NCBI GenBank assembly: GCA_964525785.1
Contig: CAZGIX010000003.1
Location: 214-64,213 of the forward strand
DNA: 64,000 nucleotides
Source of the DNA: an uncultured Anaerolineaceae bacterium
GTDB taxonomy: Bacteria; Chloroflexota; Anaerolineae; Anaerolineales; UBA4823
Direction of reading: 5' to 3'
The notes under the pieces were generated by a model that saw only the letters and a list, made by a program, of their open reading frames with translations, searched no databases and was not told the DNA's origin. Shown in pieces: positions 15,711 through 42,610 of this stretch. Position 1 is the first letter of the stretch. Every line of letters begins with the position of its first letter. Both the position numbers and the translations under genes were made by a program.

Positions 15711-15743
15711 GTGGACATTTTGTGGACACTCATGTGCTATATG
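15711..15743 (+). promoter_or_regulatory. direct heptamer repeats with 11-nt periodicity plus -10-like hexamer (candidate SARP box / operon promoter)
   Basis: GTGGACA (15711-15717), then tttt, then GTGGACA (15722-15728), a 9-nt spacer and TATATG (15738-15743). It lies about 100 nt upstream of the first operon ORF. Confidence 0.45.
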
Positions 15744-15841
15744 TTCACAGATGTCTGCTTTTGCTGTTGCCTTCTCTCCGGCATCCGGAGCAACATACTG
15801 CTGTATCGTGAGCAATCGTTCACGAGAGTGAGCATCGCCAG

Positions 15842-16081
15842 GTGAGCGCTGCAATCGCTTATGTTTCCTTCTTGATCCGCCTGTGGCAGGACGAGGGGGA
15901 ACACATCGGTGAAAAGCCTCAGGTTTGGCGCGGCCATATCGAGCATATCCAGAGCGGAAAGCACTGGTACTTCGAGACACTGGATGACCTGTTGGATTTT
16001 CTCCGACTTCAGGCACAGGATCCCACAATTCTGGCGCCGGAGGACGAAGGCGGAGACAGCAGAAACAAGGATGATCGTTGA
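15842..16081 (+). CDS. small conserved-looking hypothetical protein (79 aa), first ORF of the tail-like operon
   Basis: GTG start. The sequence is FLIRLWQDEGEHIGEKPQVWRGHIEHIQSGKHWYFETLDDLLDFL. Its stop overlaps the next ORF start (TTGA). Confidence 0.5.
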   Translation: MSAAIAYVSFLIRLWQDEGEHIGEKPQVWRGHIEHIQSGKHWYFETLDDLLDFLRLQAQDPTILAPEDEGGDSRNKDDR

Positions 16082-40100: not shown

Positions 40101-41749
40101 TCTCCCAGGTTATGCCGGTGGCAGGCGGCGCCAATTATGCGCTGAACTTCTGGGGCGTGGCGACCACGTCTGAAGCAGTAGCCGAGATCATCTGGTACGG
40201 TGGCAACTGCAGCGCCCAACAAGTGGACAGCCTGGAGTTCACCACCTTTGACGCCGACCCGCGAGTGATCAGACTGGCGCTGGAACTGAGCATCCTCAGC
40301 GGCGGCGTGGTGCCTGAGGCGTCTCCGATAGTACTGCACCGTCTGGCGGCAGTCGCCCCTGCCGGCGCCGAAATGGCCGAAGTGCGCTTCAGCGTGCCGG
40401 CGCGGGAGGCGGCGGTTGTGGACCTATCATCGTTCCAGGCCACCTCGGATGCCTTGGTGAACGGCGACATGCAGCAGCTCGACCAGGGTCGACTGGCAGG
40501 CTGGACGCTGGCCCCTTCAGGCGCTTCCGGGGTGCTGCTCACCGCTGAAGAAGGCGGGCTGCGCTTCCGCAATGGGGGCGCGGCATCTGTCGCACTGGAG
40601 CAGGCAGCCGGATTCCCCGCCCAAAGCTCATACGAGCTGACATTCTCGGGGCGGCTTGAGACAGCGTCTGCGGGCGCCGAGCCGCTCCTCGAACTGACAT
40701 TCACCGATGAAGCCGGGCAGGCCCTGGGCTCCCCGCTCAGCGCCGCCATCGGCGCACAAGGCTCCGACCAGCTGGTGCGGCGCGGTGAATCGCCGGCTGG
40801 GACTGCCGCAGCCCTTGTGCGGTTGGTGGTCCCCTCGGGAGTGAGCCTGCTGGTACAGCAGGTGGCGCTCGAAGAAGTGGTCATGGTGGAGGTGCCGCTG
40901 AATTTTGTGGCCCAGGCCCCCGGTGACCTGAATATTTCTGATCTGCGCGTGGTCTACGACCGTGCGCCAGCAGCCCCACCCCGGAGACCGCCAACAGGTA
41001 TACCGTGCCCACCTACACCCCCGGCTGGCGCGAGCGAAGGCCGCGGCTGCTGCTACTGCCCGTGCTGTGGTGAAACGGACGAGCTGTGCAACGCCCACGA
41101 GACCGAGACACCCGGAGGCCAGCCAGCCGTAGAGGGAGAATGCTGTCACTGCGGGTCTCACCAGCAGCACATCGGTGGTGGCGCAGCAGCACCCGCCACG
41201 ACAGCCACCGTACCTCCGGTGAGCGCCGGTGGATTGGGAGTTCCAACTCGTCCAACGGTCGTTGCCGCACCGACTCGCGTCCCAGCACCTACGGCTGTAC
41301 TGAGCCGTATCGAGACACGTGGCGCTGCGCCGATCGTTGTTGGAAGGGCCGGAAGCGCCGGATTACGCCTGGCAGGGGCTGTTCTGGAAAGGCGAACCGC
41401 CGCCGCGGGCGGAGCCGTGCGGATTGCTGCTTCTGCCATTCCCCCAGCGGTGCGGGAGCTTTTCACATCCGCGCCTCCGTCCCTGACGATCCTGCAGCCA
41501 TCTGCGCCCAGCGTGGGGGAGCAGCCTGCCCCATCGCCGGCAGGATCGCTGCTGCCGCCTATTTCCGCGGTGACCGGGGTGACATCGGCGTTGGCTGCCC
41601 GGCTGGCATCCTCCGGGTTGGGTGAACTCGACCGCCTGGCAGAGGCTACCCCATCCCAAATCTCCGCAGCTCTCTCTAGAAGAGATATGCAGACCGCCAG
41701 GCGCATCTCACGCAATGCCCGCCGCCTGTTTAAGTCACTCACCTCTTAA
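37190..41749 (+). CDS. giant multidomain protein in the tail-fibre position (7-blade YVTN-type propeller, jelly-roll/CBM-like signatures, Cys/His cluster, HhH-like C-terminus)
   Basis: Seven xPDGxx blades at about 38880-39935: AAGPDGKTIFISI, VSPDGRRVCVST, FSPDGSRLYVRR, VSSDGSRLYVLT, LSRDGRRLVAVN, MHPDGNYAVVAD and LPGGERIFASC. NNDFEAW and NGDM...GW signatures are present. The Cys cluster is CCYCPCCGETDELCNAHE...ECCHCGSHQQH. The C-terminus is ISAVTGVTSALAARLASSGLGELDRLAEATPSQISAAL. Confidence 0.6.
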   Translation: MLVSERFEGSRTPFEGDRQLILRSLPEGAQVTKATLLVEPVAPPGGVIFEERIDFAGDQGDWGARKLETTSFAEVDFHIRRTLSSVLGSGLNGASLQVDLGGLYVPINELGAMSNPEDGVNDFSLPDAAGGLLPSLATAKFKLTLPAAGNPHITRVGIRSAPSNLTLRLEGGPPFWARPGELARTETVPDFSVILNAFLTEAEAQDGYYEIPLTIHSDSLCRLDLTVEIDFVQSQAALPGGLNEAALSFDYSTLSTSPPGLVTVRLPAGARVLPGQTGARVRGSFADSRIVCGPTGLLESAGTVKITPERAQAAPLVFTENLPFTTIDLMLTSVSRTAELALDLVEDTDGKPFTQSVLPSQVRLAIDSQVQGKPTWVNASLPVEVQVKAGVRLWLVVQSLRGEAEWSVATQAQVAAHSASGVWTAGDAIAADESRGSPLGMQYTDTGGLSWRAESLSGVNGPLVGFLHLRQAPPSYQVPIELQVGQGDAAQRVSLQRFEPLGRVDFSLDFAEVAEAINQVASASTAAVPQGELLLNNDFEAWHRVGDTPPDTLVRFPVNRTVSALAAGPDGKTIFISIPLSSSIGAASNIFASSETTFLLAGINEACLEPEGFVLLPASPALAIAVSPDGRRVCVSTANTLIWVDVEQWQVIGFGQTSTGAPFLDASPGRGVFSPDGSRLYVRRYFEPDDDDLPSAGSILFVDVERLESKLLENAPFNASDIVTGTIDLGDNIEPVDLVVSSDGSRLYVLTADHNSADVPASVRSYDPATRRIVLAGVPVGTNPLAEDQPVGAARGGVALSRDGRRLVAVNSGSASLAVLALPRGIPIGQEELTGDPQPLPVAVEMHPDGNYAVVADYRNSQLIIYDIARLGVVDPRLTINLNSHPAILAALPGGERIFASCHRSEEGPGLVALPMGVLVPEEWSLTAGRVQRLCAPAPFRLAAVLGDFFSRDEASFKQAGALPARRATAISQVMPVAGGANYALNFWGVATTSEAVAEIIWYGGNCSAQQVDSLEFTTFDADPRVIRLALELSILSGGVVPEASPIVLHRLAAVAPAGAEMAEVRFSVPAREAAVVDLSSFQATSDALVNGDMQQLDQGRLAGWTLAPSGASGVLLTAEEGGLRFRNGGAASVALEQAAGFPAQSSYELTFSGRLETASAGAEPLLELTFTDEAGQALGSPLSAAIGAQGSDQLVRRGESPAGTAAALVRLVVPSGVSLLVQQVALEEVVMVEVPLNFVAQAPGDLNISDLRVVYDRAPAAPPRRPPTGIPCPPTPPAGASEGRGCCYCPCCGETDELCNAHETETPGGQPAVEGECCHCGSHQQHIGGGAAAPATTATVPPVSAGGLGVPTRPTVVAAPTRVPAPTAVLSRIETRGAAPIVVGRAGSAGLRLAGAVLERRTAAAGGAVRIAASAIPPAVRELFTSAPPSLTILQPSAPSVGEQPAPSPAGSLLPPISAVTGVTSALAARLASSGLGELDRLAEATPSQISAALSRRDMQTARRISRNARRLFKSLTS

Positions 41750-41785
41750 AGGCTGTAATCTGGTCGATTCGATCGGAGGTCATTA

Positions 41786-42610
41786 ATGAATGAATTCATC
41801 GCTACAAATAAAGACTTTGTAGACTTGCTGCTCCAGATTGTGTACCTGGTTGTCCCTTTGATCATCTCGTGGTTGATTCGCACCTATGTGCGCAACACCA
41901 CCTATGAGAAGCAGATCGGCAGTATCGTGCGCCTGAGCAATGCGGCGATCGATTATGTGGAGAACCTGGAGAAACGCGGCGAACTGATCGTTCCGGAAGG
42001 GGTAAAAAAGGGCCAGCAGAAGCTGGCTTTGGCCTCCGATTGGCTGGAAGAAGAGCTGAACACCAATGGTATCAAGGTGAGCACTGAGGATGCCACGCGT
42101 TGGATCTCCGCTGAATTCCAGAAGCGCATTGGCGGGGTACTCACTTCCTCCATCACCCAGGAAATGACCAACATGGCTGTCGATTTGATCCAGGGCATGG
42201 AGAAAGGCAACCTATCAGAGCTGGCTGATGACAAGGAAAAGTTGGATATCCTGGTGGACCTGGCTGCCGACTGGCTCTCCGCGCGCCTCTCTGAGCAGCG
42301 CGGGGTGCGTATCAACCGCACGGAGGCTGCAACCTGGGTGCGGGCAGAGCTGCTGAACCGCTTGCAGATCAAACAACTGCCATCGGGCGATTCGTTGCTG
42401 GATCTGGCGCGCCAGGCAATCGCCTACGTCAATGGATTGAAAGCCAGCGGGCGCCTGGCCCAACGCCCCGGCGCGGCCGAGTTTGACGTAGATATCGCCG
42501 CGGCATGGATGCTCACCGAAGCACTGCAGCTCGGCCTGAATATCACGCCTGAGGAGATCGCCAACGCGGTCAATACTGTTATCCGCGCCCGTAAAGGGAC
42601 TGATTCCTAG
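41786..42610 (+). CDS. single-pass membrane protein with three tandem LL-H-holin-like soluble modules
   Basis: The N-terminal TM is LLLQIVYLVVPLIISWLI, followed by three modules of one pattern. Module 1: AIDYVENLEKRG...KLALASDWLEEELNTNGIKVSTEDATRWISAEF. Module 2: KLDILVDLAADWLSARLSEQRGVRINRTEAATWVRAEL. Module 3: AIAYVNGLKASG...DVDIAAAWMLTEALQLGLNITPEEIANAVNTVI. Confidence 0.5.
   Translation: MNEFIATNKDFVDLLLQIVYLVVPLIISWLIRTYVRNTTYEKQIGSIVRLSNAAIDYVENLEKRGELIVPEGVKKGQQKLALASDWLEEELNTNGIKVSTEDATRWISAEFQKRIGGVLTSSITQEMTNMAVDLIQGMEKGNLSELADDKEKLDILVDLAADWLSARLSEQRGVRINRTEAATWVRAELLNRLQIKQLPSGDSLLDLARQAIAYVNGLKASGRLAQRPGAAEFDVDIAAAWMLTEALQLGLNITPEEIANAVNTVIRARKGTDS

Follow-up and report, generated by a model that had tools for sequence, protein, structure and literature searches.

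We examined a 64,000-nt stretch of DNA from an uncultured Anaerolineaceae bacterium (positions 214 to 64,213 of contig CAZGIX010000003.1, assembly GCA_964525785.1), which we call the window. Within it, 19 intact genes on the + strand form a single array (15842..42610) that resembles the tail of a contractile phage. We think it probable that this array encodes an autonomous, head-less contractile injection machine which works broadly as proposed below, and that it belongs to a conserved, horizontally spread family derived from the tail module of a Mu-like myophage. Judging from its genes, the machine is also more probably an effector-delivering extracellular contractile injection system (CIS) than a purely pore-forming tailocin. 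We give roughly even chances to a broader claim: that the family is an undescribed major lineage of CIS beside the R-type tailocins, the extracellular CIS (eCIS) of the Afp/PVC type, and type VI secretion systems (T6SS). Such a lineage would be found in at least 239 species from about ten phyla, would lack an AAA+ ATPase, would carry an exchangeable toxin covalently on a peptidoglycan-binding, Mu gp43-like hub protein with a partner gene, and would be commanded by a SARP regulator via conserved heptamer boxes with an 11-nt spacing. (SARPs are otherwise known from antibiotic gene clusters.) These readings start from what we observed in the window and its relatives, namely the gene content, its conservation, the head-less state, the exchange of one module, and the association with a regulator and repeats.

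An original prediction, made without database searches, had described the array as an autonomous head-less machine, unlike a textbook R-type tailocin or Afp/PVC locus. This description passed checks based on profile and structure searches, on gene neighborhoods, and on signs of decay. The genes that it named are intact and lie on the + strand as predicted, and they are identical to the gene calls on public metagenome contigs with the same sequence. The gaps between genes had been put at -4 to about 100 nt. The lower end stands, but the upper end is 180 nt (17199 to 17380), and the next widest gaps are 172 nt (19606 to 19779), 119 nt (16081 to 16201), and 105 nt (37084 to 37190). Three giant proteins of 1228, 1652, and 1519 amino acids (aa), which we call giants 1 to 3, make up about half of the coding sequence, as had been claimed (4399 of ~8900 codons, or 49% of the 26.8 kb). 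The open reading frames (ORFs) on the - strand within the cluster overlap + strand genes that are conserved as proteins in at least 80 loci, and they are shadows of those genes. The features are listed in Table 1.

Table 1. Features of the contractile-tail locus and its upstream region (window coordinates).
Feature	Coordinates	Strand	Evidence
SARP/AfsR-type regulator: BTAD, AAA_16 STAND NTPase, TPR	12547..15630	+	BTAD 2.5e-22; AAA_16 2.4e-26; TPR_12
Candidate SARP box, GTGGACA-N4-GTGGACA, 11-nt period	15711..15728	+	only exact match in the window
p79, small conserved ORF (79 aa)	15842..16081	+	called on public contigs; no family match
p332, predicted tail terminator/cap (332 aa)	16201..17199	+	AlphaFold2 model and Foldseek
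Perfect GC-rich 20-bp hairpin in the terminator-sheath spacer	17258..17300	+	-46.3 kcal/mol; z = -8.3 versus shuffles
Contractile tail sheath	17380..19053	+	Pfam Phage_sheath_1 and Phage_sheath_1C; phrog_279 E = 3e-45
Candidate tail tube (180 aa)	19064..19606	+	position between sheath and chaperone; weak structure matches
Tail assembly chaperone, gpE / Mu gp41 type	19779..20249	+	weak Phage_TAC_7 E = 0.0011; phrog_344
Tape-measure-position protein, low-complexity	20246..21538	+	position; no family match
p182, small Mu gp43 / P2 gpU-like	21569..22117	+	DUF6046 6e-5; phrog_184 baseplate hub
p141, conserved 141-aa protein	22130..22555	+	same position in ~50 loci
Giant 1 (1228 aa)	22583..26269	+	OmpA, PG_binding_1, DUF6046, P2_GpU matches
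HEAT-repeat protein, putative partner of the giant-1 module	26273..26743	+	HEAT_2 9e-19
Baseplate hub, gp27 / gpD / Mu gp44-like	26754..27818	+	phrog_4930 6.5e-6; phrog_52; VgrG_rel
Spike, gpV / gp5-like OB fold and repetitive C-terminal region	27853..28671	+	Phage_base_V 1.1e-7
p110, spike-tip (PAAR) position (110 aa)	28681..29013	+	position only
Sheath initiator, gp25 / gpW / Mu gp46-like	29074..29535	+	phrog_975 5e-19
Baseplate J wedge, gp6 / gpJ / Mu gp47-like	29532..31118	+	Baseplate_J 9.5e-15; phrog_6 1.6e-34
Giant 2, gpI / gp48-position baseplate protein (1652 aa)	31126..36084	+	weak N-terminal phrog_1160 'baseplate protein'
p325, fiber-adaptor position (325 aa)	36107..37084	+	between giants 2 and 3 in 50 loci
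Giant 3, candidate fiber / receptor-binding protein (1519 aa)	37190..41749	+	position
Holin_LLH-like protein, candidate release factor	41786..42610	+	Phage_holin_6_1 8e-9; phrog_2609

We have several lines of evidence for this reading. First, the genes are arranged as in the tail of a Mu-like myophage, running from the terminator (gpK) through the sheath (gpL), the tube (gpM), and gp41-gp48 to the fiber. The predicted Mu-type order is thus borne out from the terminator to the fiber position, with homologs of gp43, gp46, and gp47. The locus has matches to GP46, Baseplate_J, and Phage_TAC_7, homologs of giant 1 match DNA_circ_N (the N-terminus of Mu gp43), and the Mu terminator is a structural match of p332. 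Based on the gene order and the DNA_circ_N, GP46, and Baseplate_J matches, the ancestry of the locus appears to be Mu-like. Unlike a Mu-like myophage, the locus has no genes for the head, packaging, or transposition, and no convincing lysis cassette. It also differs in that gp43 is duplicated, with one copy expanded by OmpA, peptidoglycan-binding, and enzyme modules; the proteins at the gpI and fiber positions are giants of 1.5-1.65 kaa; and the terminator has an extra C-terminal domain.

Second, the locus is head-less, and so are its relatives as far as we surveyed them. As predicted, Pfam searches of the cluster's ORFs and of 20 large flanking ORFs found no capsid, portal, terminase, integrase, or replication gene in the window. 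In the relatives, Pfam likewise showed no recurrent head genes, in a survey that covered 10 kb on either side of each cluster (122 ORFs on the upstream side of 30 loci and 146 on the downstream side of 24). The neighborhood check came out in favor of a stand-alone system. The flanks vary by taxon: Geoalkalibacter has an Mla operon and polyphosphate kinase there, Blastococcus has SBP56, and other taxa have toxin-antitoxin genes or glycosyltransferases. As for decay, the orthologs are intact and strongly conserved, with no frameshifted remnants apparent.

Third, the family is widespread. Scanning one genome per species, we found it in 239 species. We established synteny of the first half of the cluster from 80 fetched loci and of the second half from ~30 metagenome loci. 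The 80 loci represent about ten phyla and include Gamma- and Alphaproteobacteria, Desulfuromonadales, Acidobacteriota, Chloroflexota, Actinomycetota, Cyanobacteria, Bacteroidota, Gemmatimonadota, Vulcanimicrobiota, and one Methanotrichaceae metagenome-assembled genome (MAG). The order is constant: terminator, sheath, tube, chaperone, tape-measure position, p182, p141, giant 1, (a small ORF), hub, spike, p110, gp25, and J. The ~30 metagenome loci share the other half as well, with giant 2, p325, and giant 3. The sheath has over 2000 homologs and is 44-83% identical across phyla among the listed matches and fetched loci; the listed matches from other phyla are 60-68% identical. The chaperone is 62-79% identical in all loci except the most distant (Bacteroidota-type). 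The most conserved protein of the system is p110 (68-78% identity across phyla, with a mean column identity of 79%). Two loci from Vulcanimicrobiota (L035 and L057) have a split cluster, with gp25-J-giant2-p325-giant3 divergently upstream of the terminator gene. In the Methanotrichaceae MAG (L066), an archaeon, the cluster lies on a contig of 879,906 bp and its sheath is 50% identical; the explanation is either transfer between domains or an error in binning.

Fourth, the family is far from any sequenced phage, with protein identity of at most ~30% over half the length. In a search of 50,697 phage records, the sheath had its best match at 30% identity over 40% of its length, and the J protein at 30% over 51%. 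In IMG/VR (2.9 million contigs) we found only three tail-only fragments. In these (L094, L095, and L096), the sheath is 35-49% identical, and the portions that we fetched contain genes for the tail but none for a head; IMG/VR may be labelling clusters of this kind as viral in error. The plasmids of PLSDB hold no close relative. We found no published description of the family in the full-text literature, with subscription journals outside our reach. A preprint on a CIS from Haliangiales describes a different system, modelled on PDB 7B5H.

We then considered giant 1. The two proteins at the gp43 position are both of the Mu gp43 / P2 gpU / DUF6046 type, as predicted, and are paralogs of each other: p182 is 40% identical to the N-terminus of giant 1 over 118 aa (E = 2e-30). 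We propose that p182 is a tube initiator or hub adaptor. Giant 1, also labelled a hub adaptor, is better read as a gp43-like structural core fused to an exchangeable, effector-like enzyme. From the N-terminus, it comprises a gp43/gpU-like domain, a CarboxypepD_reg-like domain, an OmpA-like domain, and PG_binding_1, and the core is conserved up to aa ~620. According to Pfam, OmpA is present in 33 of 35 homologs of giant 1, PG_binding_1 in 32, and DNA_circ_N in six. (The OmpA-like domain also has a weak match to TIGR03350, type_VI_ompA, in NCBIfam.) Along with the gp43 duplication, the size of the expanded copy varies across the family, from 500 to 1800 aa, and where the homolog is short, the module is encoded as a separate ORF.

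The C-termini of these homologs are diverse. They include a PAD domain (6e-97), Reprolysin_3/4/5, M43, M10, a PETase/chlorophyllase-like hydrolase, and a beta-helix. Two of the 35 homologs end in a full protein-arginine deiminase (PAD and PAD_M, E = 6e-97). As a candidate effector of a bacterial injection system, such an enzyme is, to our knowledge, unusual. Giant 1 itself carries HEIGHVLHLPHD in its last ~55 residues, and the HExxH column is invariant in the alignment of the C-terminal region. The top PDB profile matches of the module are weak (E of 0.016 or worse), and all of them are Zn-metalloproteases (fragilysin, ADAMTS, botulinum light chain, and karilysin). We therefore suggest that the module in the window is a metzincin-like Zn-protease.

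The C-terminal module is exchanged independently of the core. Two Desulfuromonadales-type loci (L007 and L028) have sheaths that are 74% identical, and the C-termini of their giant-1 proteins are unrelated. The same is true of L081 (Amycolatopsis) and L072 (Streptomyces), with sheaths that are 65% identical. L007 (Geoalkalibacter) and L050 (Nocardioides) have sheaths that are 59% identical and giant-1 C-termini that are 52% identical. Furthermore, the small gene downstream co-varies with the module: a cluster of nine loci defined by the giant-1 C-terminus coincides exactly with a cluster of nine loci defined by the downstream small ORF. The HEAT-repeat protein of the window groups with those of L052 and L079, which share the window's type of C-terminus, and HEAT_2 is also found in the partner genes at L009 and L034. 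A constant N-terminus, a swapped C-terminus, and a co-varying small downstream gene are what is expected of a polymorphic-toxin-type fusion. Because of the swapping and the co-varying gene, we read this as the signature of a polymorphic effector and its cognate partner, which is unlike a housekeeping lysin. The HEAT-repeat protein would be the cognate partner of the giant-1 module, as either an immunity protein or a chaperone. In L093 (14077-15672) and in one further locus, a 531-aa protein with PF13699 (eCIS_core, or DUF4157) lies directly 3' of giant 3; this domain is a marker of eCIS cargo toxins. No DUF4157/eCIS_core cargo was found within the window.

The regulator upstream had been taken for a SARP, which it is, and for a mere chromosomal neighbor, which it does not seem to be. 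At least 23 relatives, which belong to Actinomycetota, Chloroflexota, and Acidobacteriota, have homologs of its N-terminal 250-300 aa (the DNA-binding/BTAD region) immediately 5' of the terminator gene, and BTAD is the commonest Pfam family among the 122 upstream ORFs. In the classical SARP operator, direct repeats of a heptamer are spaced by one helical turn. Of 24 SARP-linked relatives, 13 have two to five (C/G)GAGAC(G/A) heptamers with an exact 11-nt period, 300-450 nt 5' of the terminator gene (the background for such arrays is 0.045 per kb). In the window, the candidate box lies right at the start coordinate of the original prediction (15711) and is followed 9 nt later by TATATG. We propose that the SARP belongs to the system as its pathway-specific activator. 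Because the SARP and the heptamer repeats recur upstream in relatives, the system probably starts at 12547. Like the SARP-controlled biosynthetic clusters of actinomycetes, the locus has an adjacent BTAD gene and heptamer repeats with an 11-nt period before the first structural gene, but here the target is a phage-tail-like machine, and the arrangement is also found in loci from Chloroflexota and Acidobacteriota.

Other regulators were seen near the cluster. A PAS/GAF histidine kinase and a LuxR-type response regulator lie just 3' of it in the window (43013-46366), with homologs adjoining the cluster in L042, L085, and L088; this pair may be a second, alternative regulatory module. Sigma-54 enhancer-binding activators are upstream in 4 of the 30 loci and recur in some loci that lack a SARP. 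The type of regulator may be swapped between phyla.

We also assigned the individual components of the tail. The sheath, the gp25-like protein, the J protein, the hub, and the spike had been named correctly, as judged by the family matches in Table 1. Overall, though, NCBIfam names almost no component of the cluster, and most components lack a specific model in Pfam, NCBIfam, or PHROGs. The first structural gene, which the original prediction left unnamed, is predicted to encode the tail terminator or cap. The AlphaFold2 model of its product, p332, has a pLDDT of 92.2. In a Foldseek comparison with the PDB, the N-terminal half of the model matched phage neck and terminator proteins (E down to 2e-4, probability ~1), including the collars of pyocin R2 and diffocin, lambda gpU, the Mu terminator, and the monocin cap. 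The matches in BFVD are tail terminators or gp12-like neck terminators. Since the model matches terminator and neck folds, we take the gene to encode the tail terminator. This fold occupies the N-terminal half of p332 and is joined to an extra, family-specific C-terminal domain. A profile search of the PDB with the terminator family alignment gave zero matches. The gene is immediately 5' of the sheath gene in 72 fetched loci, and the family is sharply bounded, with 247 clusters at 50% identity among 1.84 billion representatives. Many members have N-terminal extensions of 50-240 aa, and one (P0209 from Nocardioides sp. LMS-CY) is annotated as a collagen-like triple-helix repeat protein.

The 180-aa protein downstream of the sheath had been called the tube. 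In searches with Pfam, PHROGs, NCBIfam, and PDB profiles, it had no direct match to any family model or PDB sequence. The AlphaFold2 model, built from four sequences, is of low confidence (pLDDT 59). Its top PDB matches are the tubes of T5, phage 812, and SPP1, Hcp, and the PVC tube (probability 0.8-0.97, E ~0.01, TM 0.35-0.45). The model is shallow because the concatenated query of tube and terminator retrieved mostly terminator homologs and just three tube homologs. A tube homolog that is 42% identical (P0227) has a precomputed match to PF18906. The next gene had been labelled an XkdN-like chaperone; the weak Phage_TAC_7 match supports a chaperone, but of the P2 gpE / Mu gp41 type rather than the XkdN type. 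The tape-measure-position protein is the least conserved of these gene products, although its C-terminus has a conserved motif (..IKRILDEEARRHGIDV). Across 64 loci, a + strand ORF covers a median of 1.02 of the interval between the chaperone and p182 (minimum 0.73), while the median for the longest - strand ORF is 0.58. For p141, the only matches were weak ones to tape-measure-like PHROGs, and by eye its sequence looks helical.

In the hub and spike region, the hub matches the N-terminal part of NCBIfam's VgrG_rel (6.5e-11), and the spike matches its C-terminal part, as well as phrog_9992 (3e-12) and phage_P2_V. The public gene calls give a spike product of 267 aa, so its true start may be a few codons downstream. 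For p110, labelled PAAR-like, the position agrees with the label, but we found no match to profile hidden Markov models (HMMs) and, with the family alignment, no PDB sequence match. The gp25-like protein has further weak matches to Sheath_initiator, GP46, and GPW_gp25.

Beyond J, giant 2 contains eight tandem repeats of ~113 aa (aa ~160-1070), followed by a C-terminal domain of ~580 aa. (The repeats were resolved by a motif scan and not by self-BLAST.) Giant 2 is conserved 3' of J in ~30 loci and has no match in the PDB. The protein that follows, p325, has no family match, and its PDB profile matches are at chance level (E of 0.33 or worse). Giant 3 has a conserved N-terminal region of ~530 aa and a C-terminal tail that is HhH/DUF4332-like, together with a YVTN-type beta-propeller and a segment rich in Cys. 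Among its ~50 homologs, the N-terminal third is conserved and the remainder is variable; Pfam identified HHH_5, DUF4332, and Lactonase in them. In the PDB, giant 3 matches the YVTN propeller of 1L0Q (2.4e-6), and for giants 1 and 3 the PDB matches are at the level of domains only (OmpA/PG-binding and the propeller, respectively). The fiber labels that had been given to p325 and giant 3 are positional; neither HMMs nor the PDB gave a match to a fiber. From the position of giant 3, we infer that it may bind a receptor.

The last gene was correctly described as holin-like (36 bits for Holin_LLH, with a cut-off of 24.9). The protein has a single N-terminal transmembrane helix and three LLH-like repeats, and it is the only protein of the cluster with a clear transmembrane segment. 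A homolog is found 3' of giant 3 only in L092, L111, and L148 (three of ~25 relatives). Within the cluster, we found no match to an endolysin or a spanin.

Putting these components together, the system might work as follows. The SARP would bind the 11-nt-spaced heptamer repeats and turn on the operon. The particle would assemble in the cytoplasm, in keeping with the confinement of clear transmembrane segments to the holin-like protein. The two gp43/gpU-like paralogs would form an adaptor ring that joins the trimeric hub to the hexameric tube, with the larger paralog bearing the OmpA-like domain, PG_binding_1, and the exchangeable C-terminal enzyme (here putatively the metzincin-like Zn-protease). 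The small protein encoded next door (here with HEAT repeats) would keep this enzyme harmless or load it. Lysis with the holin-like protein would free the particles, and the periphery formed by giant 3, p325, and giant 2 would bind the target. Contraction of the sheath would then push the spike and tube into the target's envelope and deliver the peptidoglycan-binding, enzyme-bearing protein there.

Several points weigh against this account. Every step beyond the presence and conservation of the gene set is something that we infer. The weakest steps are the release of particles and the location within the particle of the ~1100-aa extension of giant 1; lysis in particular is weakly supported because there is no endolysin or spanin and because the holin-like gene is present in so few relatives. 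The evidence for the tube, from a predicted model, is weak, and the roles of the tip and fiber proteins are positional. The C-terminal module in the window has no significant Pfam match of its own, and only the motif, the family matches of its relatives, and weak PDB profile matches stand behind the protease call. The co-varying small ORF could be a chaperone or adaptor and not an immunity protein. Finally, the SARP boxes were found in only those 13 of the 24 SARP-linked loci, and no SARP was detected in most of the 80 fetched loci.

We weighed three other explanations. In the one that fares best, which we still consider unlikely, the locus is a classical R-type tailocin that kills close relatives by membrane depolarization alone, and giant 1 is only a structural tube initiator or a tail lysin. 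The LysM-bearing gpX/XkdP proteins and the tail-associated lysins of phages help in crossing peptidoglycan, and P2/PBSX-type tails have peptidoglycan-binding domains in hub-proximal proteins; within giant 1, OmpA and PG_binding_1 show the highest conservation. Like this locus, the R-type tailocins (pyocin R2, carotovoricin, diffocin, and PBSX-like particles) are chromosomal, head-less myophage tails. They also share the phage-like placing of the tube, chaperone, and tape measure, the lack of an AAA+ ATPase, and a holin-type gene at one end, and the collars of pyocin R2 and diffocin match p332 structurally.

But tailocins are lineage-restricted, at the level of genera, while this family spans about ten phyla at 44-83% sheath identity, and its best phage matches are ~30% identical over 40-51% of the sheath and J proteins, which is not the close kinship to a known temperate myophage of related hosts that marks an R-type tailocin. 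The locus has no endolysin or spanin cassette. Tailocins are under SOS/PrtN-type control, in contrast to the SARP at this locus. Moreover, the locus carries a polymorphic enzyme module and a cognate partner gene: the deiminase, protease, and PETase-like C-termini swap independently and co-vary with the partner, as in polymorphic toxins, and genes with the eCIS_core toxin marker adjoin the cluster in two relatives. R-type tailocins are described as perforating their targets and injecting no effectors (PMC8213781).

An effector-delivering machine need not be a canonical eCIS, and we rejected that classification given the lack of the ATPase and the phage-like gene order. Like the Afp/PVC-type eCIS (and MAC, AlgoCIS, the Streptomyces CIS, and tCIS), the locus is head-less and its family has been transferred widely between phyla. 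It shares their logic of effector delivery with variable toxin-like domains, and eCIS_core proteins adjoin the clusters of the two relatives mentioned above. It also has a large baseplate protein at the gp7/Afp12 position and a core of spike, gp25-like, and J proteins (Afp8, Afp9, and Afp11), although all contractile tails share that core. Unlike the eCIS, the locus has no AAA+ ATPase of the Afp15/Pvc15 type (no ORF in 15842-42610 matches an AAA family, and the only P-loop is in the STAND AAA_16 domain of the SARP). Nor does it have a PF06841-type tube match, and there are single genes for the sheath and the tube. The tape measure follows the tube and the chaperone, and the terminator is the first gene, in contrast to Afp14 and Afp16 at the 3' end. 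And the effector-like module is attached covalently to a gp43-like protein, whereas eCIS cargo is encoded separately at the 3' end. We also rejected T6SS, as no defining component is present: the locus has a single phage-type sheath instead of TssB/TssC, and it has no ClpV and no matches to TssJLM. The only resemblance is a weak similarity of the OmpA domain to TssL.

For the fused module, the nearest conceptual parallel is the tape-measure-related "reconfigurable" effectors Sle1 and Sle2 of the SLP system of Streptomyces lividans (PMC13277306), along with the evolved VgrG and PAAR effectors of T6SS. These also combine a structural N-terminus with an exchangeable C-terminus and a partner protein. 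They differ from giant 1 in that the carrier here is a gp43/gpU-like paralog with OmpA-like and PG_binding_1 domains, in another lineage of CIS.

A second explanation, which we consider quite unlikely, is a CIS that is retained by the cell, like the Streptomyces CIS or the thylakoid-anchored CIS of Anabaena. It would act within the producer or at its envelope, in regulated cell death, differentiation, or firing upon contact, and the OmpA-like and peptidoglycan-binding domains would anchor the machine to the producer's own wall. SARP regulators typically govern development and secondary metabolism, a convincing lysis cassette is lacking, and many carriers are filamentous Chloroflexota, Actinomycetota, or cyanobacteria. 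The membrane-complex proteins of T6SS do use OmpA-like peptidoglycan anchors, and the weak match to TIGR03350 agrees with this. On the other hand, clear transmembrane segments are confined to the holin-like protein; the carriers also include unicellular Proteobacteria, Bacteroidota, and Acidobacteriota; and the large, variable, beta-propeller protein at the fiber position suggests external targets.

Last, it is very improbable that the locus makes up the tail portion of an element that is dispersed or decaying, whether a defective prophage remnant or something like a gene transfer agent with its head genes elsewhere in the genome. A Mu-type order that opens with the terminator does begin where the head-tail joining genes of a phage would end, and our survey of head genes covered the flanks of the clusters. 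But the cluster is intact and strongly conserved in 239 species, no head genes recur in the 10 kb to either side of it, it has no integrase and no adjacent tRNA, the phage records contain no close relative, IMG/VR contains only the three tail-only fragments, and the cluster has gained a cellular regulator of its own along with an effector/partner module. A degraded prophage, specifically, we rejected, because the cluster is intact and conserved, the flanks are varied, and the phage records searched contain no close relatives.

The remaining observations concern the window around these genes. The G+C content is 0.58-0.675 in the cluster (16000-42000), as compared to 0.50-0.54 in the 12 kb downstream and 0.55-0.60 upstream, which is consistent with horizontal acquisition of the cluster. 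The flanks encode ABC/MacB transporters, two-component systems, glycosyltransferases, and similar functions. No tRNA is adjacent; the nearest is tRNA-Lys at 53638-53711, 11 kb away. Just 5' of the SARP gene, on the same strand, is a right-handed beta-helix protein (NosD / pectate-lyase-like, 10870-12183). The 79-aa protein that opens the array has homologs that are 33-43% identical and at the same position in L027, L030, L031, L032, L036, and L040. Its motif, SFLIRLW...WRGHIEHIQSG..F..L..L..FL, was seen in Chloroflexota-type loci only (L030, L031, L032, L036, and L040), plus L027. The relatives that share p79 and the tape-measure-position protein with the window point to Chloroflexota as its probable taxon.

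At the level of RNA, Rfam had zero matches over 12000-43500. Scans for sigma-70 promoters and intrinsic terminators at both ends of the cluster gave scores no higher than shuffled sequences and so are uninformative as to whether there is a single transcript. The hairpin between the terminator and sheath genes has a U-run that begins only ~12 nt past it. In most relatives this spacer is much shorter, so the hairpin is not conserved but lineage-specific; it might serve in processing or stability, or act as a partial attenuator.

Research on CIS concerns their roles in microbial warfare and development and their use as programmable tools for protein delivery. Surveys for them depend on profiles derived from Afp/PVC or on likeness to known tailocins. 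The gene content of this family would evade both types of survey, which suggests a sizeable blind spot. The carriers come from soil, sediment, marine, and wastewater habitats, and include cultured strains, among them Geoalkalibacter halelectricus, Yoonia sediminilitoris DSM 29955, Phormidesmis priestleyi ULC007, Nocardioides soli DSM 105498, Cellulomonas massiliensis JC225, and Pengzhenrongella phosphoraccumulans M0-14. A cargo-like module on a hub-proximal structural protein, with no loading ATPase, hints at a simpler and engineerable principle of loading. Finally, the link to the SARP is a directly testable hypothesis, and over-expression of the SARP may offer a handle for producing particles in those carriers that can be cultured.

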